A stretch of 62,140 nucleotides of DNA, filler included, from Bonamia ostreae (Eukaryota), in the NCBI GenBank assembly GCA_040357525.1. It is 28 parts of 28 records of this genome, joined end to end, with 100 filler letters (N's around TTAATTAATTAA, not from the genome) between each part and the next. Parts side by side here need not be neighbours in the genome. Positions count along the whole stretch, not along the records: positions 13,458 to 15,597 come from JBDODL010001024.1; 27 more parts are not named here. One strand, given 5' to 3'. The translations under genes and the position numbers were made by a program. Within the stretch, counting starts at the first letter, position 1, and every line of letters begins with the position of its first letter. Below are positions 11,340-60,102 of the stretch, piece by piece. The notes under the pieces were generated by a model. It searched no databases, was not told where the DNA came from, and saw only the letters and a list, made by a program, of their open reading frames with translations.

Positions 11340-13150
11340 ATGGATCCTAAGAAACCATTAAATATCGCGGACAAGAAAAGACTAGAAATTAACTCGGACA
11401 GCGTCACTTCTTATATCCGGAATACCAAAATGTTCGGCGGACAAGCGAGCATTAAAGCCATTTCGGAGTTTCCGGGAAACGACATATGCGCTGATTGCCG
11501 CAGAAAAGGTTCGGAAATTAGATTCATTATATTCGTCCATCTTTAAAAGCGAAATTAGTGCAAATTTAAACAAATTTGTTTTAACAAAATTTTCAATTAA
11601 AGAGAATGAGTGGGTTAGCTTGAAAATAGGAATATTCATTTGCATTGATTGCGCTAGAATACACAAAACGCTCGGGAAAGAATTTGCCGAAGTCCAATCT
11701 ATAAAACATGACGCGGTTATATGGGACCTGGAAAAAATCCAAGTTAAAATTTGTTACAAATCTCATTATTTTTTCGAAAAAAATTTGCAATAATAATAAA
11801 ATTTGGAGCAAAAATAAAAATTTGGAACAAAAATAAAATTTGGAACAAAAATAAAATTTGTAACAATAATAAAATTTGTAACAAAAATAAAATTTGGATC
11901 AAAAATAAAATTTGGAACAAAAATAAAATTTGTAACAATAATAAAAATTTGTAACAATAATAAAAATTTGTAACAATAATAAAATTTGGAACAAAAATAA
12001 AATTTGCAAAAAAATAAAATTGCAAAAAAAATAAAATTTGGAACAAAAATAAAATTTGGAACAAAACAGTTTTTGGAAGCAGCCGGGAATTTAATGATGA
12101 ACAACATCTACGAACATCGATTGCCGAGTTATTATTTGACTCCGAATGAGCTGATCGATTCCCCTTTCGTCCGCAAAAATTTTATCTCGGTTAAATATCT
12201 TGAAAAACTGTTTTTGAAAACCGACAGAAATCTCCACGAAAACGAAATTAACGAAAAAGATCATCTCGTTGTGGAAGGATGTCCTTTTTACAAAATGCCG
12301 CAGGTTTTGCCAATCTTTCCAAAAGCACTTTTGCCAATTTACAATTTCTTCCAAAGAACCCGTTAACGTTTGAAGGCGAATATCGATCTGAGAAAAAACA
12401 AAAAGGATCAAAAGCTTCGATGATATTGATAAACTCGATTCTTTCTGTTTACAAATCCGAAAAAGTTTCGCTTCAAAAATTTTAAAATTTCGAAATTGTT
12501 AAATCTAAAATATATTAGGATAAAAACCCGAAAGCAACGATAGAAATCGAAAAAGCGAAAATCGATTTGACGAACCGCATCGTCAAAGGACTGCAAGAAT
12601 ATTCGATAAAGGTCGCTTCAAAGGACAAATGTCACTTTTTTGACATGAGAGAGACTTCCGGAATCATTGATATCGTCCATTCGATGAGAAGAGCTAGTGC
12701 CTTTTATTCCACAAACCCAAATCAAAAATTGTCGAATATTTTGCCCAAAAATATGGTCAATTTGCAATTTTAAAAAAAAATGTCGATTTTTTTAACAAAA
12801 TTTTCGGTAAAAAGATGTTTGAAAAAGCAATTTTGGAGAATTCTGCAATAAAAGGAATGGCCAAAGTGTCCGGTTCGAAAAAATGGATTGTTCTGGTCGA
12901 CGAAAATTTATATTTTTTCAAAAGCCAAAAGAATGTCAGTCCGAATGGTTGTGTCTTATTGAGAGAATCGCTAATCAAAGAACACAAACAAAATTCAATA
13001 ATGATCGTTTCGCCGTTCCAACGCGTTATCGTAAAACTTTCTGACGCGGAAGAAACGACAAAATGGCTTTTCGAGCTTAAAAAAGTTGGTGAAACGTTGA
13101 ATGAACAGAAGTTGGTCGATTTTAAGGATTTGTGTGAGTATGAAAAATAG
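11340..13150 (+). CDS. ArfGAP with two PH domains (ADAP/centaurin-alpha-like), 6 exons
   Basis: Spliced GNDICADCRRKENEWVSLKIGIFICIDCARIH is the ArfGAP zinc finger with catalytic Arg. PH-like segments follow (KKWIVLVDENLYFFK...EETTKWLFEL). Introns include 11509-11602, 11743-12069 and 12304-12356. Confidence 0.85.
11790..12066 (+). repeat. Tandem array of ~18-bp units (AAAATAAAATTTGGAACA / ATAATAAAATTTGTAACA) filling ArfGAP intron 2
   Basis: About 15 adjacent units are directly visible, with no spacers. Confidence 0.9.
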
Positions 13151-13457
13151 AATATCTAATTTTGTTGTCCTTTTTAAGACAAAATTGTTTAAAAATATTG
13201 TTTTTTCAGCAAAAATTGCTTAAAAGCTACAAAATATTGTTTTTAAACCAAAAAACTAATTAAAAGTAAAAAAAAATTTTATATTCATCAAAAAAAAGAT
13301 TAAAAGATAAAATAAATTGTTATATAATAAAAATCTGCATAAATATTACAAAATATANNNNNNNNNNNNNNNNNNNNNNNNNNNNNNNNNNNNNNNNNNN
13401 NTTAATTAATTAANNNNNNNNNNNNNNNNNNNNNNNNNNNNNNNNNNNNNNNNNNNN

Positions 13458-15510
13458 AAAAGAAAAAGATGAAGTTTTCGAGTTCAATCAAAACATCAAA
13501 AATTTGAGAACAAAATATGAACAAAAACAAGAAAAAGCCGTTAATCTCTTTTAAAGATTTAAAAATTAAAATTTGGCTTTTCTAGAAATTACTAAAATCT
13601 GATTTTTTTAAATTTCTCTAAAAGCTAAATTTTAAAGTATCACGGATTTATATTTCCGAGAACGCCGGGAGATGTTGAAAATTGCATTTTAGATTTCAGC
13701 AAGCCATCTCCGACGCTCCAAAACTTAATTTTGGAAGAGAAATTGAAAGATCAATTTACTGTTGTTGTGATAAGAGATATTTTCAAAGAAAATGGAAATC
13801 GATTTATCGAAAGAGAAAAAAGAGAAGATTTAATCAAAAATCTCGCTTCTGTCTATCATTATGTTTTTTTTTGACAATTTTACCTATTTTTTTTACCATT
13901 TTTAACAATATTTTTTGTCAATTTTTACCGATTTTTTAACAAAAACAAAATTATTTTTTTTGTCAATTTTTACCGATTTTTTAACAAAAACAAAATTATT
14001 TTTCGACCATTTTTAGCGATTTTTTATTATAAAAAACTATTTTTTTTGACAGTTTTTACCGATTTTTTTAATAAAAACAAAATTATTTTGTCAATTTTTA
14101 GCGATTTTTAGCGATTATTTAAACAAAATAATTAATCGACTAAATTTTAAGTATTTAAACGGAGTTTTTGGAAAGAGTGCGACTCCAAATCAAAAGCGAT
14201 TTTCACTGAAAAATTTGAAACCAGTTGACATTGAAGTCTCATTTCATGACGATCGTCGTTCGCTCAACGAAATAGTTTAACAAAAAAATTTTACAAAAAA
14301 ATTGCAAATTATAGATAAACTTAAAAACTGTCGAAAACGATACTCAGTCATTAAATCATCGATCGTTTAAAGGAACTCCTTTTAGATTCGAACTTCACTT
14401 GCCACAAAAAGATCCAATTATCGTTTTTATATTAAAAACAAATTTTAGACAAAAATCGAAAATTTTTATTCTCAGAAAAACTAAATTTTAGACAAAAAAT
14501 CACATTTTTATTAAAAAGGGAATAATTTTTTATTATCCGTTCGAAAATGAAGAAGAGACAATTCCGTCTTTGGAAACTATCAAAAACAACGAAGAAAATA
14601 ACGAAAACCAAAATTTATCAAAAAATAGAAAAGATTTTAGAAAAGATACCAATAAAACGGAATTCGATCCCATTTTCAATTGTTTTTGGCAAGGAAGACA
14701 AATTCCTTACGCTAATGTCGCCATGTTTTTTGGATTAATTTTAATATTTATTTTTTCAAATAATTTATTAAAATAAAATTTTATTTTTCGACTAATTTTT
14801 TTTATTTTTCGACTAATTTATTTTAATTTTTGACTAATTTTTTTACAACAAATTTAATTTTTCGACTAATTTATTTTAATTTTTGACTAATTTTTTTACA
14901 ACAAATTTTATTTTTAAACTAATTTATTTCAATTTTTGACTAATTTTTTTACAACAAATTTTATTTTTCGACCAATTTTTAACAATAAAATTTTAAAGTC
15001 TAAAATTTATGATTGGAATAGAACCTTATTTGAGAAAAAGAATAAGAGGAGCACTATTTTTCAACGAAAGTTTTGCAGTGAACCCGAATAAAAATATTTT
15101 CAAAAGCGATTTGAACGAAATTCTTAACGTTCAAGGAGCAAAAGTTATTTTAAAATTTTGATCTATTTTTGCTTTTTGATCTATTTTAAAAATAATCCAA
15201 AATTATCTTTTTTCTTTTTTTTCTAAAAAAATTTTCTAATCGAAAAAGCAAATTTTAATAAATTCTAATTTTTTAGAAACGGTATTTTGATTTTTATTAA
15301 ATTTAACGAAAAAGATTGAAAATAATTGATTTTTACTAAAATTAACGAAAAAAGATTGAAAATATGCTTGACGATTTGAAAGAAGAAAATTCTGATTTGT
15401 TCGCGCGAAAATCGCAAAGACCAATATCAAAATACGAAAAAATGCTTTTCGTCCCAGAAAAACGTTTTCTAATGTGGACCAGACGAATGAGCGAACAATT
15501 TGATAAAGAA
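13458..15510 (+). CDS. SMCHD1-like protein, GHKL-ATPase/transducer region, internal multi-exon fragment
   Basis: Spliced product matches SMCHD1 collinearly: KDQFTVVVI, LASVYHY|YLNG, VDIEVSF, GIIFYYPFENEEETIP, PIFNCFWQGRQIPY, RIRGALFFNESFAVNPNK, FLMWTRRMSEQFDK. The corresponding SMCHD1 blocks are DSFTAVVI, LAHIYHYYIHG, GIIRYHPF, IFECFWNGRLIPY, RISGALF, FALWLKDCHEKYDK. Confidence 0.85.
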
Positions 15511-15763
15511 GTTTTTTGCTAAAAAAACAATTTTATTGTTATTAAAACAATTTAAAAAAAACAATTGAAAGTTACAAAAAAAAAAACTAACCATTACNNN
15601 NNNNNNNNNNNNNNNNNNNNNNNNNNNNNNNNNNNNNNNNNTTAATTAATTAANNNNNNNNNNNNNNNNNNNNNNNNNNNNNNNNNNNNNNNNNNNNAAA
15701 TTTTACGACATTTCGATTGAACAACAAAACATTGCCGTTTTTAAAAATTTTTTGCAATTCGTT

Positions 15764-16469: not shown

Positions 16470-17085
16470 TAGTTTTTTATTGAATTAATACTGTTTTCGA
16501 ATATAATATTATATAGCTGTTTTTTAAGCTTTAAATTTATTGCGATTTTGTAAGCTTAAGATTTGTAATTTGTTTCCAAATGAAGAATCGGAATTTATAA
16601 ATTTAAAATATAATTTTATAAACAATGGAAGATCTAAATCTAAATAATTTAAAGTTTAAAAAATTTATCAGAAAATTATGTGATTGCTTAAAATGAATAA
16701 AAAATGAGATTGATATAAAAGAAAATCAAACAAGGTTTGATCAAATAAAAAAATTTGAAAAACATGAAAAACAAAAAATTTGAACATTTTCAATTTTTAA
16801 AGGGATCATCGTAGATGAAATCGCTGATCATTATAATTGTTTAAAAGATAAAAATTTAAAAAATGAGTAACGGAAAAATCATAACTAGAAATGGTTAAAA
16901 TGCTATCGCCAAACAACATTAATCGTTCTGTATTTCCGCCATTAACAATATCAAAATATCGTTAACGATGGAATTCAGAACGACAAGAAACTCATAACAA
17001 GTCTAATCAATTAAATCCATAAAAAGTCAAATGTTCTCGCCATTCCATTATATGCGAAGCAAATAATATCCAAATTTTGTTTCTC

Positions 17086-17835
17086 ATGTTCCGACAATCT
17101 ATAAAGAACAAAGCTCTTTTCTTTAAATCCGCGACTGCTCTCGGTTGTTCATTTGGAGTCCAAGCTCTTTTTCTGAACTGCGCGTTTGCGGAAGACACGA
17201 AGAAAACGAGAGTTTTCAGTTGGGGCGCAAGCCAATATTTCCAGACTGGTTTGGGGCGCAACAAAGGAGTCTATTCCCCTGAGCCGGTCTCGTTCTTCGA
17301 CGACGTGGCCATAGCCGACATCCAAGCCGGGGGCCAGCAGACCTTCGTTCTCGCCAAAGACGGCAAAGTTTACTCTTTCGGTCGTGGCGACGACGGGAGA
17401 CTCGGCCACGGCGGAGAGGCGAACGAGGTTCTGCCGCGCGTTGTGGAATCGCTTCTGGGCACTAAAATAGCATCCCTGTCCTGCGGCGAAAAACATGTCG
17501 CCGCTGTCACCGAAGACGGGGACTTGTACACTTGGGGAAGAGGGCATTCGGGGCAACTGGGGCGAGACCCGTCTGACTTGCCTCGGAAAGTGCCGGGCAT
17601 GGCCAACATAAAAGCGGTTTCGTGTGGGAAGTTCCACACGGTCGCAGTCGACTCTTCGGGGCGCGTTTTTTCGTGCGGCGAAGGGCGCTCGGCCGCTCTC
17701 GGCCATGGCGACCGCGATTCCAGAGAGCAATTTGAACTCGTCGGGAATCTGAAAGACGTGAAAATAACCGATGTGGCCGCTGGAGAAGATTTCAGTCTTT
17801 TTTTGTCCGAAGATGGACGCCTCTTTTCCTGTGGA
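17086..17835 (+). CDS. RCC1-repeat (beta-propeller) protein, 3' truncated
   Basis: Repeated G..H/T..........GxVYSxG.G..GxLGxG motifs. The basic, acid-free N-terminus resembles a mitochondrial presequence. Confidence 0.9.
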
Positions 17836-23189: not shown

Positions 23190-23500
23190 CGCGGTAACTC
23201 ATTGGTATATCATTCGCTTCGTAGCCGGGAGACCATGAGTTCGAACCCCGTCTGTGCCAAAGAAGAGTCAAACCTAAGACGTAAATATAAGTAGTAATCG
23301 CTCCGTCGCTAAACGCTCAGCATTTAGAAGNNNNNNNNNNAGAATCATGGGTCTTTCGGATAGGATTTCTAAAAGAGGGATCCTGTGTCGCGGCACATTA
23401 AAGAACTATCACTAATACCGCCCCGAGTGCTAAGCATAGGACATCACCTATAACTGGTGACGTCTAAAGTCCTCGATACGATGTAAAACAAACAAACAAA
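23190..23500 (+). mobile_element. tRNA-derived SINE (host-type), near full length, contains a 10-N gap
   Basis: Pol III B-box GAGTTCGAACC at ~23237, a conserved core shared with two other contigs, and an (AAAC)n tail. Confidence 0.75.
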
Positions 23501-35622: not shown

Positions 35623-35758
35623 NNNNNNNNNNNNNNNNNNNNNNNNNNNNNNNNNNNNNNNNNNNNTTAATTAATTAANNNNNNNNNNNNNNNNNNNNNN
35701 NNNNNNNNNNNNNNNNNNNNNNGATTTTTTTGTATCGACTTCTTTTTTTGAAAATTTT

Positions 35759-36670
35759 TTGAAAGCGAAGAAGAGGAAAATCTACGACCAATTCGGCGAA
35801 GAAGGCCTCAAATCGGGAGCAGGCGGGAATCCGGGCTACAACTTTGAAAATTCGGACGTCTTCAGCCAATTCTTCACAAAAGGCGGTGGAGCACGCAATT
35901 TCTCCTCCTTCTCCAGTTTCTTCGGAGGTGACCTCGGCGACATCTTCTTCGAATCCTCCGGAACCAGAAACCGCAACAAAAACACTTTTTCGTTCGGGGG
36001 CAACAACCGCTTCCGACAGAAACCGAGTCCCATCGTCCACTCTTTGCCCTGCTCGCTCGAGGACCTCTACAAAGGATGCACTCGCAAAATCAAAGTGACG
36101 AGGAAAAGAGTGAACGCGCGAGGCGCCGTGGAGGACGAGGTGAAGATGCTGACGTTGGATATAAAGAGAGGTTGGAAGGAGGGAACCAAAATAACGTTCG
36201 AGCGAGAGGGCGACCAGTTGGGAGACGGCGTCGAAGCGGCGGATATCGTCTTCGTGGTGAAAGAGAAGGCGCACGCGCGGTTTTCGCGGAGTGGAAACGA
36301 CTTGACGAAGCCGTTGAGATGTTCGCTGAAGAAGGTGTTGAGTGGATTTGTCTACTCTCTGGAGACTTTGGATGGCCAGAAGGTGAACGTCAAAGTGCCT
36401 TCTTTCAGTTTGATGTAATTTTTTCGTTATTTTTTGTCGTCTTTTAATAAAACAAAAATATTTTGTCGTTCAATCATTTTATTTTGTGAAAAAAATTTGT
36501 GTTTAAATAACAGAACTTTTTGAAAAAGACCAGAAAAAGGGTTGAAACACAGAATAACCGGATATGGAATGCCAATTAGCAAAAATCCCAATCAGAGCGG
36601 AGATTTGATTCTCGAAATTGCAGTCAAATTGCCGCGATTAAACAAAGAACAGCTTCAAATGCTCGAATAA
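35759..36670 (+). CDS. Class II DnaJ/Hsp40 (DNAJB/Sis1-like), 5' truncated
   Basis: KRKIYDQFGEEGLK, a G/F-rich region, LPCSLEDLYKG, GWKEGTKITF and last exon GYGMP...GDLI ending at TAA 36670. Confidence 0.9.
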
Positions 36671-36719: not shown

Positions 36720-37787
36720 TTATCTTTCGAGTTTTGAACACAGTTCTTCAAATTCTTTGTTTACAAAGTGGATTCTTATGAAACTGTCTTCTCCGCCTGT
36801 TGCGAGTCTAAACAAAATTTAAAAATTCGAAAAATAAAAATTCGAAAAATTGGAAAATAAAAAAAATGAAATATTTAAAAACGAAAAAAAATTGAAAAAG
36901 AAAATTAGAAATTGATATTTAAAAAATTAAAACAGAAAATGGAAATGACAAAAATTTAAAAATTTGAAAAATAAAAGACAAAAATTTTGAAAAATAAAAT
37001 TTGAAATTTAAAATTTATAAAGTTTGTAAGAAAATTTGAAAATCAAAATTCGATAAATTGGAAAATAAAAAAAATTGAAGAAAAAAATTGAAAAAAACGA
37101 AAAAATTGAAAAAGAAAATTCGAAAAATTGAAATTAAAAAAAATAGAAATATTTAAAAAAAAAGAAAAAAATTGAAAAAAAAAACGAAAAAATTTGAAAA
37201 AGAAAATTAGAAATTGATATTTAAAAAAATAAAACAGAAAAAGGAAATGACAAAAATTTAAAAATTTGAAAAAATGTGATCTGACATTTTTCCTTCGGGA
37301 GACAAAGCGATTTGGTAAATCGGCCCAAAGCTGCTCAGAACTTTTCCTATCAACTTTTCGTTGACAAAGTCGTAAAACAAAAGTTCGAGTTTTCCTTCTG
37401 TCTTGGAAGTCGAAGTGACGTGTAGTTTGTCCTGTCCGCCGCCCAGAACCAAAACGGGATATTGTGGTAACAAAGCAGCGGCTCTGATGGGACGATCTGT
37501 TTTGATATTTTTGAGGATCGTCAATGAGTCGGTCATTAGAACGGTCGCAGAGTTGTCCAGATTGCAAGAAATGAGCAATTTGCCTTCTTTCGCCAAAGTG
37601 AGATTGATTGCGGAGTTGTCAGAGACATTGACGGAATCGACTAATTTGCCGTCTTCGATGGAGAATTTGCGGATGATCCCGTCATCTCCACCGGAAAGAA
37701 TTTGTTTGTCGAGGTTTGTCCAAAGGACGCTTTTGAATGAGGTTTTTTTGTATTCGAGTTCGAATTTTAAGAATGGCTCTGTTGTTT
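36720..37787 (-). CDS. EIF3I: Translation initiation factor eIF3 subunit I (WD40), 3' part; intron 36808-37285
   Basis: VLGGGQDKLHVTSTSKTEGKLE, FGPIYQIALSPEG and ATGGEDSFIRIH match eIF3i. Confidence 0.85.
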
Positions 37788-38672
37788 CTAGAAATTTTTT
37801 TTGTTTTTGAAAAAATGATTTTTGTTTTATTATTTTTTTNNNNNNNNNNNNNNNNNNNNNNNNNNNNNNNNNNNNNNNNNNNNTTAATTAATTAANNNNN
37901 NNNNNNNNNNNNNNNNNNNNNNNNNNNNNNNNNNNNNNNGAAATTTGTTGCGTATTGATCTAATAAACGCTGCAGGTTAACTTGATAAAAAAAAGTCTCA
38001 ATTTTTTAAAAATGTTTTAAATGAAACGCGCGGGTACATACATCGTGTTGCTCAGTACGTATTTGGATCCATATGTATCTTATAGGGGGGGGGGGGGATG
38101 TTCAGAGATAACGGGCACACGTGAAACTTTTTTCACAACCTTGTAATCATAGATAACACGTGTTTTCAAAGAATATAAAATAAATGTTGTTTAGTGATAA
38201 AAAGATTTTTGGGACACTTGGTAACGCTAATTGAGTTTCTTACATAGACACACAAATTAAACACGTGATGTTTTAGGCGCAATTTTCAACTTCAGAATTC
38301 ACGTTCCTTAATTGTATGTGTAAATGTGATTAAGTAAGATTATGTTCCTATAAAAACGATGTTTAGTCAGTAAAACTTTACCGCTCCTTCCAGCCTTGAT
38401 TAAAGCATCGACGTGATTGAAGCTAATTGAATACGAGAGGGTTTTTGTTGTTGTTGTTGGACTAAATGGCTGAACAATACCAAGACAACACGTAAGAATT
38501 AAAATTAAATTAGATATTCTTTTACAATTCATTGTTTTTTTCTTTGAGCAATATTCCCTTTATTTTCATGTAACGATATTCAAAGTAAAAGTCTGATTAG
38601 CCTTTTTATGTTCATAACTTATCAGCAGTTAGAGGGTAATATATTCTTTCATTTATTATTATTAAAATTAGG

Positions 38673-57834: not shown

Positions 57835-59847
57835 ATTCTCTTTTAAAATCTTCGTCTTGAACCAATCTGTTAATCTTTAACAATTTTATTATTTTTTCTT
57901 TGACTTCCAACGACAATTCGATCACCTTTACACTTTTATCATCTTCTTTTTCCGACAACGAGATCTCTTCAACTTTGGCTTCAGAAATGTTCATTGCAAG
58001 AGGTTTCCCGCGATAATCGTAAGCCAAATTAAAGTGCACTGTTTGGCCTGGATATAAATCTTCTATTTTGTGTTGTCGGTCGAAGCTCGATTCTTTTTTC
58101 AATTGTAATTTTTGTTCGAAAGTACTTGTAACAATCAATTGTAGTAAACAACAAAAAGCAAAATTTAACCGATAAATTCAACAATCGAGACGGGAACGCT
58201 TTCGTTCGAGTCGGATAATATTTGTTTTAAGTAATAAGCTTTGTAGGAGATTTCGCCTAAAGCTCTTTCGATAGAATGGTCTCCGTCTCGATCACGAGAC
58301 GGGAATATTTGGATAATTTTGCCTGTGCAAATTCCAACGTTCATAATCTTTTTTAAACTTTGTTATTTTGTTCAAATTTTATTATTTTTTGATCAAATTT
58401 TATTATTCTTACAAATTTTATTATTTTTTGATCAAATTTAGAAATTTTCGATCAAAATTTTTTATTTTCGATCAAATTTATTATTTTCGATCAAATTTTT
58501 TATTTTTTGATCAAACTTAGAAATTTTGATTATTGATAAAATTTGTAAAAATCAAATTTGACTTTTATCAAATGATTAATGTTCATTCCGTTTTGAAGAT
58601 GAACATTTGACGCAATATATCTGTTCGTAAAACTACTCCATTTTGATTCAAATCTAACGATATCACCGTGTTTAAACTTTCCCACATATTTTTCCTCGTT
58701 ATTAATAAATATCGGCTCGTCATGATCCGCCGCCTTAAAAATTTATCAATTTTATAATTTAAGAATTTTGAGTTGAACATTTTAAAAAATTTAAAATTAA
58801 CAAAAATTTCAATGTTTCTTTTCTCGCCGTAATTGTTCATAAAATCGCCGTGACCGATTCTCACAATCCCAAAGTTTGGAGACATTTCCTTGCGCAGTTT
58901 TTTGTTTTCTTCTTCTATTCTTCGCCATATAAAATTTCTCGGTCTTTCTTGAATAGTTCTAAGCTTAGCGCGTAACTGATTTATCGTCTTTTTTGCACTA
59001 TTTTTGATTATTTTTTAAAAATATTTTGAAAACTCAATTTAAAAAACACTTTAAGCTCTATGCAAATAAATGCTTAGATAGTTTACATAAAATGACATCA
59101 ACGAAAAGTTTATTATAAACAACTTTTCCAAATTACAAAATTACAAAAGCTTTATTATAATCCAAAAATAAACTATTTTGGCTGATAATCAACTACGTTC
59201 GAAAAAATGTGATTAAGCTCTTGACATTCCGGGCAGTTCGCTTTAAAGCGGTCCGCGAATTCAAAATAGAGCGAATCGATTGTTCCCAAAAGATCGGTGT
59301 CGTGTTGCGAAAAGAAATCGATTCGCTCTCGCGTTTCAGAGGAAAGACTTTTCCTCGGAATCGGAGCCTTCGGCCCAGAATAGTCGAAAGCGTCGACTGT
59401 TCGAGAGGGCATCAAAGACGGGTCCCAGCAACACCAATAAAGGTCGCCGTCTAGATCGCCTCCGCTCATTTCGTCGGAATGCGGACGAGCGCTTTGGCTG
59501 TCCGTCGGGAAAACGAGCACATCGATCAAATGCGCGTACTCGTCCCCGGGATCGACGCAAGTCAAAATTCGCATGTCGCCGGGAGAGTAACAAGGCGTTC
59601 TTCCGACAAGAATTTTGCCGCGGAGAGGGACGGTTTCCCTGTCGGCTCGCGTGGGGCAGAAGAAAACTTGGCCGTACTTGAGTTTTCCGGAGGTGTCTCT
59701 GACGCCGTGGACATTTCTAGATTTGGGCACGAAAATTCTCACTCTTTCAATTTCGTCTCTGCGGCGATGTTTGATTCCAGTCTTGAGATTTTTGGTGAAT
59801 TTTGTCAATTCTTTGATTTTCAGCGATCTCAGTCCTGTAATAACCTC
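57835..59847 (-). CDS. Cellular (RNAi-type) RNA-dependent RNA polymerase catalytic region, apparently spliced to two cold-shock/OB-like domains
   Basis: GVRDTSGKLKYGQVF, VGRTPCYSPGDMRIL, HLIDVLVFP, RPHSDEMSGGDLDGDLYWCCWD. Predicted introns 58998-59173, 58734-58801, 58348-58562 and 58093-58169 keep one frame. The RdRP call is near certain; the fusion is less so. Confidence 0.85.
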
Positions 59848-60102
59848 CTTTTGGATTTTTTATATTTTAAATTAGAAAATGTGCTTTATCAGTAACATAA
59901 AATTTTTTATATTTGAAAATATGAATATCCAAATTTGAANNNNNNNNNNNNNNNNNNNNNNNNNNNNNNNNNNNNNNNNNNNNTTAATTAATTAANNNNN
60001 NNNNNNNNNNNNNNNNNNNNNNNNNNNNNNNNNNNNNNNTAGCAATTTTCGCAATTTGAATAATAAATTAAAAAATTTTGGCATTTTAAAAAAACAAAAT
60101 AT

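Follow-up and report, generated by a model that had tools for sequence, protein, structure and literature searches.

A contig of 2,140 bp in the genome assembly of Bonamia ostreae (GCA_040357525.1) raises three questions: (i) whether it carries part of a gene of the SMCHD1 family of chromatin ATPases, as a sequence-only reading had proposed; (ii) to which organism such a gene belongs; and (iii) whether it was inherited by descent or acquired horizontally. This contig (13458..15597, GC 23%, with a spacer on each side) is number 7 of the 28 that were joined to form the window, that is, the whole stretch of 62,140 bases analyzed here. The window is no single locus: its contigs, of 2,101-2,144 bp each, are sorted longest first and separated by artificial spacers, each composed of TTAATTAATTAA with 44 N on either side (e.g., 13358-13457 and 15598-15697), the TTAATTAATTAA linker having stops in all frames. 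Since the contigs are unlinked and artificially joined, their adjacency is biologically meaningless and nothing that flanks contig 7 is physically linked to it. In short, contig 7 is very probably an internal piece of a nuclear, intron-rich SMCHD1-family gene, which shares its AT-rich eukaryotic source with the neighboring contig at least and was inherited by descent.

Regarding the family, seven open segments of the + strand were scanned against Pfam at E ≤ 10. Segment 14492-14776, corresponding to exon 5 alone, matched SMCHD1_S5 (PF22899) with 56.7 bits (cutoff 27; E = 3.5e-15), and segment 14997-15161, corresponding to exon 6, matched profile positions 104-128 of PF22899 with 19 bits (E = 1.3e-3), which is below the cutoff by itself. 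The other five of the seven segments had no Pfam match at that threshold, and none of the seven matched the Pfam models of the MORC S5 domain or of other GHKL transducers. The best solved-structure match was mouse Smchd1 (6MW7) both for segment 14492-14776 (chain 405-471, E = 2.8e-5) and for segment 13629-13874 (chain 265-335, E = 5.9e-3). As both matches fall on the same chain in the same order, they are collinear; the exon 6 segment alone matched none of the solved structures. When exon 5 was run with HMMER over 1.84 billion representative proteins, four matches were obtained, all four of them with SMCHD1_S5, the best being P0001 (eukprot:833878_1; 2,143 amino acids). In the ESM Atlas, exon 5 found bacterial or phage clusters only (0.80-0.88), below the level of evidence. 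A word-index search with exon 5, limited to proteins of at most 2,000 amino acids and hence without P0001 and many relatives, gave no match.

The comparison with P0001 extends this assignment to the rest of the fragment. By tblastn, P0001 gave seven segments on the contig, collinear on both molecules and covering P0001 residues 212-583: four of them are individually significant (E = 2.3e-22, 2.0e-11, 1.7e-8 and 1.6e-4), and the other three are weak alone (E = 0.18-0.94) but correctly ordered. By blastp, P0001 and the spliced fragment form a single alignment over 348 residues. Collinearity with a full-length member of the family is therefore found for 7/7 exons, across the junction between the GHKL and transducer domains. 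The Pfam, structure, library and collinearity evidence together confirm the observation far beyond chance: judged from its sequence, the contig carries a genuine fragment of an SMCHD1-family gene, not of a MORC gene. In MORC ATPases, too, the GHKL ATPase precedes a transducer of the S5 fold with a basic switch residue, and SMCHD1 has been treated as a divergent MORC (PMC2292703; PMC5651269). MORC proteins, however, lack the hinge, no MORC S5 model was matched, and all the retrieved relatives carry PF22899. The distinction between SMCHD1 and MORC had been set beforehand as a refuting test, and it fell on the side of SMCHD1: PF22899 lies above its cutoff, no MORC model appears at E ≤ 10, the structure match is 6MW7, and most of the family's conserved columns are kept, as described below.

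According to the predicted gene model, seven + strand exons splice to 1,044 nt, i.e., 348 codons with neither stops nor frameshifts. The sequence-only reading had claimed seven hand-spliced exons collinear with SMCHD1 over 13458-15510, a span that starts at the contig's first base and closes with exon 7, and both claims hold. Exon 1 (13459..13539; 27 codons; donor GTTAAT) is partial, being truncated by the contig start; it corresponds to P0001 residues 212-236 and to approximately residue 258 onward in hamster and human SMCHD1, and although weakly similar by itself (tblastn E = 0.94), it keeps two conserved family columns (V and E). Exon 2 (13638..13862; 75 codons; acceptor ...AAATTTTAAAG, donor GTTTTT) encodes the last part of the GHKL domain, ends in YHY and matches chain 265-335 of 6MW7, as well as P0001 238-314 (tblastn E = 1.7e-8). 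Intron 2 (13863..14151; 289 bp) is occupied by 5.6 copies of an AT-rich tandem repeat with a 43-bp unit (13867-14109), after which exon 3 (14152..14274; 41 codons; donor GTTTAA; P0001 315-343) begins with YLNG. The 40-bp intron 3 leads to exon 4 (14315..14422; 36 codons; donor GTTTTT), where the transducer (S5) domain starts; it corresponds to P0001 353-388, within the tblastn segment of E = 2.3e-22. Exon 5 (14519..14724; donor GTTTTT) holds the SMCHD1_S5 core, from GIIFYYPF to CFWQGRQIPY, and ends in phase 2. It is followed by intron 5 (14725..14998; 274 bp), which contains 3.4 copies of a 53-bp unit in tandem (14800-14978), and by exon 6 (14999..15143; one base plus 48 codons; donor GTTATT), which contains RIRGALF and the switch-loop Lys and is 56% identical to P0001 474-523 (tblastn E = 2e-11). 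Exon 7 (15355..15510; 52 codons; acceptor ...CGAAAAAAG) encodes the end of the transducer domain and corresponds to P0001 548-583 (tblastn E = 1.6e-4); beyond its GTTTTT donor, 87 bp of intron remain up to the contig end. All seven exons are on the + strand. The five motifs quoted by the sequence-only reading are present in the + translation: YHY/YLNG across the exon 2/3 junction (13854-13862 and 14152-14163), GIIFYYPF from 14519, CFWQGRQIPY at approximately 14681-14710, RIRGALF at approximately 15036-15056, and FLMW...FDK in 15463-15507.

The six introns measure, in order, 98, 289, 40, 96, 274 and 211 bp, and the GC content is 31.8% in exons versus 15.2% in introns. Three introns consist of AT-rich units in tandem, 43, 53 and 39 bp in length, and four acceptors have in common ...AAATTTTA(A)AG, frequently with CTAA before it. 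For exon 5, an alternative acceptor at 14491/14492, with a more typical motif, would add nine codons (357 codons in total, likewise with no stops) and put a nine-residue insertion into a conserved strand; 14519, where the GIIFYYPF motif starts, was preferred, since its scores exceed those of the alternative by 9-17 bits with each of the 14 homologues listed. The acceptor of exon 7 is the least typical of the set, and it is the sole in-frame AG past the last stop. A 39-bp tandem duplication (15287-15364; two copies, 92% match) spans this acceptor and the first bases of the exon; as its upstream copy reads into an in-frame stop, only the downstream copy is usable as the start of exon 7. On the opposite strand, a 98-codon open frame (15236-15532, -) without Pfam match overlaps exon 7 and is most likely a by-product of AT-richness.

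The fragment comprises the final third of the GHKL ATPase domain and the whole S5-type transducer domain, approximately 350 of at least 2,000 expected residues. In human SMCHD1, as given by Pedersen et al. (2019; PMC6620310), these domains occupy residues 110-395 and 396-578, respectively; Motif IV contributes Thr320 to the adenine pocket, and Motif V contributes Lys525, the switch lysine on the gamma-phosphate. The spliced fragment was aligned with residues 1-950 of 36 relatives; conservation among these homologues reaches 85% or more in 56 columns, at 43/56 of which the fragment is identical. Both the Motif IV Thr (hamster 321; codon 13758-13760) and the Motif V Lys (hamster 526; codon 15090-15092) are kept, in columns that are T and K, respectively, in 36/36 homologues. 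With its intact frame and conserved positions, the fragment looks like part of a working gene and is probably functional. The name "ATPase" given by the sequence-only reading thus stands in part: Motif IV and the switch lysine are visible, while Motifs I-III and the hinge are off the contig. By analogy with the human and mouse protein, the full-length product would bind ATP in an N-terminal Bergerat fold encoded off the contig; the transducer would swing the switch lysine onto the gamma-phosphate; the N-termini would dimerize with ATP bound; and a C-terminal SMC-type hinge would join the two chains and bind nucleic acid. Clamping or looping of chromatin by such a dimer would then contribute to the silencing of repeats.

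Vertebrate SMCHD1, represented by the mouse structure 6MW7 and by the human module of residues 24-580 (PMC6620310), shares with the fragment the PF22899 transducer, the 6MW7 collinearity, the two catalytic residues and the blocks YHYYLxG, FxCFWxGRxIP and RxxGxLF. It differs in that identity is only 26-30% over approximately 295 aligned positions and in that the fragment, which falls outside the animal clade, has a low-complexity loop midway through exon 5. Outside the stretch covered by the fragment lie Motifs I-III and the UBL domain, as well as the hinge and middle domains (PF26194-PF26201) of vertebrate SMCHD1. No search gave a better match than P0001, which reached 47.8 bits with exon 5 alone and 219 bits with the spliced fragment. 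It resembles the fragment in its seven collinear segments, its GHKL domain and its sister position in the tree, and differs from it in an S5-domain loop that is longer and of different composition; as they are only 40% identical, P0001 is no close relative. Pfam shows only PF22899 and PF13589 (HATPase_c_3) in P0001, the hinge model PF06470 not being reported. Nevertheless, a hinge-region profile built from the last 460 residues of eight animal proteins matches P0001 at 1650-1957 (E = 2e-18 in a 40-protein set); P0001 therefore has a homologue of the hinge region, which serves as a proxy for the hinge of the fragment.

Searches for relatives, first from P0001 and next from an alignment of four proteins, yielded 36 proteins at E ≤ 1e-5. 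By label, they can be differentiated into: (i) 17 green-algal records; (ii) eight animal records, namely, fishes, hamster, sea urchin, the sponge Oscarella and two further SMCHD1-named proteins; (iii) Willaertia magna (Heterolobosea); and (iv) ten proteins without organism label. Apart from P0001, each of these proteins (35) is 22-30% identical to the spliced fragment, animals and algae alike. The green-algal proteins (Gonium, Volvox, Chlamydomonas, Ulva, Tetraselmis and others) show the same GHKL plus SMCHD1_S5 architecture and the same invariant blocks as the family, but their identity to the fragment is 25-29% and they form a separate clade. Land-plant GMI1, described as the plant relative of SMCHD1 in PMC5651269, was not among the 36 proteins returned. 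The wide distribution of the family is already known, both in print and in databases: Iyer et al. (2008; PMC2292703) speak of an "ancient eukaryotic lineage". Literature searches for SMCHD1 in protists and for SMCHD1 phylogeny found no paper treating these subjects, and only Iyer et al. (2008) bears on the topic. The ancient wide distribution put forward by the sequence-only reading is, hence, borne out by relatives in green algae, Willaertia and a sponge, but it is not new.

The phylogeny was computed from 37 rows and 353 columns under LG+C20+F+G4, without P0002-P0004, which are short fragments, or the weakly matching P0040. Only PF22899 proteins were included, without an outgroup family, so that the tree shows affinity to the SMCHD1 family and not exclusion of others. 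The fragment and P0001 are sisters at 100/100; the animals, sponge included, are united at 100/97 to the exclusion of the fragment, and the green clade is supported at 100/98. Forcing the pair into the eumetazoans (sponge excluded) costs 27 log-likelihood (lnL) units and is rejected by the approximately unbiased (AU) test (p = 0.0014).

As to the ownership of the contig, the sequence-only reading had argued that introns of the GTT type assign it to the protist and not to the host. GTT donors are indeed found at 7/7 sites, including the one after exon 7 whose intron leaves the contig, with GTA or GTG at 0/7. Nevertheless, on the T-rich + strand of contig 7, GTN is GTT in 25/44 cases, a background on which 7/7 has P of approximately 0.02 (approximately 0.002 with the window-wide share of 41%, 2,287/5,579). 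GTT is thus largely expected from a T-rich intron, and donor type is a weak marker. Contig 6 has a gene for an ArfGap plus PH protein (11340-13150, +): its first two donors, fixed by the continuity of the ArfGap domain, are GTTCGG and GTTAAA, and one intron repeat (11780-12066) has approximately 16 copies of an 18-bp AT-rich unit. GTT donors and tandem-repeat introns on both contigs amount to the same intron style, which ties contig 7 to its neighbor. Donors elsewhere in the window, read by eye where a Pfam match reaches the frame end, are mixed: GTT in DnaJ_C and Sec1, GTC in eIF3I, and GTA in an EF-hand gene. In PMC11069148, consulted for ascetosporean parasites, only "canonical introns" are mentioned, with no link to GTT donors, so that the donor type gave no grounds for an ascetosporean assignment. 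GC content at third codon positions (GC3) ranges continuously from 0.30 to 0.72 in 13 Pfam-matched stretches, without two classes, the SMCHD1 exons having 0.28, and two genes sharing a contig are 0.22 apart. The window gave no indication of a second genome, but 2-kb contigs offer little power. The assignment to the protist is plausible and in part supported, by the intron style and by the exclusion of the gene from the sampled eumetazoans.

Several observations weigh against contig 7 being an inherited piece of a working gene of the AT-rich eukaryote. The fragment and P0001 adjoin the animal clade at 95/70 only, so that their deep placement is weakly supported; their common stem is very long (2.0), the amino-acid composition of the fragment deviates from that of the alignment, and long-branch effects could expel a fast-evolving animal sequence from the animal clade. 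A placement of the pair with the green clade is 0.7 lnL worse and is not rejected (p = 0.25), and the groups constrained in the AU tests were chosen after the tree was seen. In the fragment itself, 13/56 conserved columns are changed, four of them (three His, one Pro) being near-invariant elsewhere. Splice sites are predictions, those of the exon 5 and exon 7 acceptors being the least certain. Motifs I-III (with the catalytic Glu, the Mg-binding Asn and the ATP lid) lie upstream of the contig start, and the UBL domain and SMC hinge are off the contig, so that ATPase activity and hinge are presumptive; tblastn of 40 relatives gave 17 segments in the window, 0/17 of them outside contig 7. Finally, on contig 17, a DnaJB-type chaperone fragment (35723-36415, +; GC3 0.72) scores 121-126 bits with mammalian DNAJB13/DNAJB1 versus 71 bits with yeast or Chlamydomonas, and an eIF3I fragment (37261-37839, -; GC3 0.50) is equally distant from human (95 bits) and yeast (91 bits) in the PDB, the latter result also counting against an animal source.

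Some of these points would agree with an origin of the contig in an animal, either as host DNA in the assembly or because the organism is itself a fast-evolving parasitic animal, the gene being then the SMCHD1 of that animal. The free tree sets the pair beside the animal clade, long branches can mask a true position inside it, by phmmer the spliced fragment scores higher with animals (59-86 bits) than with most green algae (23-59 bits), and the DnaJB fragment is closest to mammals. Yet nesting within eumetazoans is rejected, identity to animals is no higher than to algae or Willaertia, the intron style is that of contig 6 with no GTA or GTG donor, and GC3 is continuous over 0.28-0.72, even between two genes of one contig, instead of falling into two classes. 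Moreover, Pfam matches were obtained for approximately 20/146 long open frames and for 0/148 further, shorter frames in a second sweep, which indicates a very divergent proteome. An animal source is, in consequence, improbable. The same affinity to animals, in tree and in phmmer scores, could be read as horizontal acquisition by the protist from an animal, for instance its host, as the sequence-only reading had suggested as an alternative; this suggestion is not supported, eumetazoan nesting being rejected and the gene not being nested in the sampled animals. Its closest relative, P0001, is a EukProt protein without animal label and only 40% identical, so that any transfer would be ancient and shared; six introns of the resident type are present; the green placement is not rejected; and, as the family occurs in Heterolobosea and Chlorophyta, descent suffices as an explanation. 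Such an acquisition is regarded as very improbable.

A decaying pseudogene or relic fragment, with no working gene, might account for the fact that only a fragment is seen, for the 13 changed columns, for the very long branch and for introns full of expanding tandem repeats, one of which duplicates the acceptor region of exon 7. Against it, there are no stops or frameshifts over seven exons, the exon/intron contrast in GC is clear, both visible catalytic residues are kept, and the sister P0001 is equally long-branched yet full length; decay is regarded as very improbable. From the tests of eumetazoan and green placement, the pair of fragment and P0001 appears to be a separate deep lineage of the family, and the gene is probably present by descent from an old eukaryotic family and not by recent transfer from an animal. 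That this pair is a fast-evolving, non-animal SMCHD1 lineage and the true sister of animal SMCHD1 appears rather doubtful. If it were so, the animal-type protein would predate animals, or the gene would have been taken from a stem animal before the split between sponges and eumetazoans; a repeat-silencing factor would also have been retained in a gene-dense parasite with LINE-like elements and an RNA-dependent RNA polymerase.

The probably inherited, intron-rich SMCHD1-family gene adds one very divergent member and supports the family being old and widespread in eukaryotes; it also illustrates that a gene with exons of less than 100 codons is recoverable from a 2-kb contig by homology. The existing picture of the family is unchanged, its informative parts (ATP site, hinge and middle domains) lying outside the fragment and its broad distribution being already published. 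Should the organism be a genome-reduced parasite, the retention of a large silencing factor would be modestly interesting for its chromatin biology.

Other contigs of the window contain elements that touch on silencing. A 706-codon frame open to both contig ends (contig 16; 33505-35622, -) has Exo_endo_phos_2 (AP-type endonuclease) and RVT_1 (E = 3e-33) domains and is a LINE-like non-LTR (long terminal repeat) retrotransposon, a possible target for a silencing factor. On contig 27, part of an RNA-dependent RNA polymerase of eukaryotic type (59176-59859, -; PF05183, E = 1e-48) suggests a pathway of the RNA interference type in the same assembly. The DnaJB and eIF3I fragments face each other on one 2.1-kb contig, which points to a gene-dense genome. 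No rRNA, snRNA or tRNA genes were found in the whole window by Rfam (0) or by tRNA scan (0). The most GC-rich contig (contig 8; 43%) bears an intron-free 271-codon frame of RCC1 repeats (17023-17835, +), whose best solved relatives, HERC2 and plant UVR8, have similar scores and are, taxonomically, uninformative. Lastly, contig 11 contains a run of 10 N (23331-23340), unlike the 44-N spacers, which is presumably a scaffolding gap.

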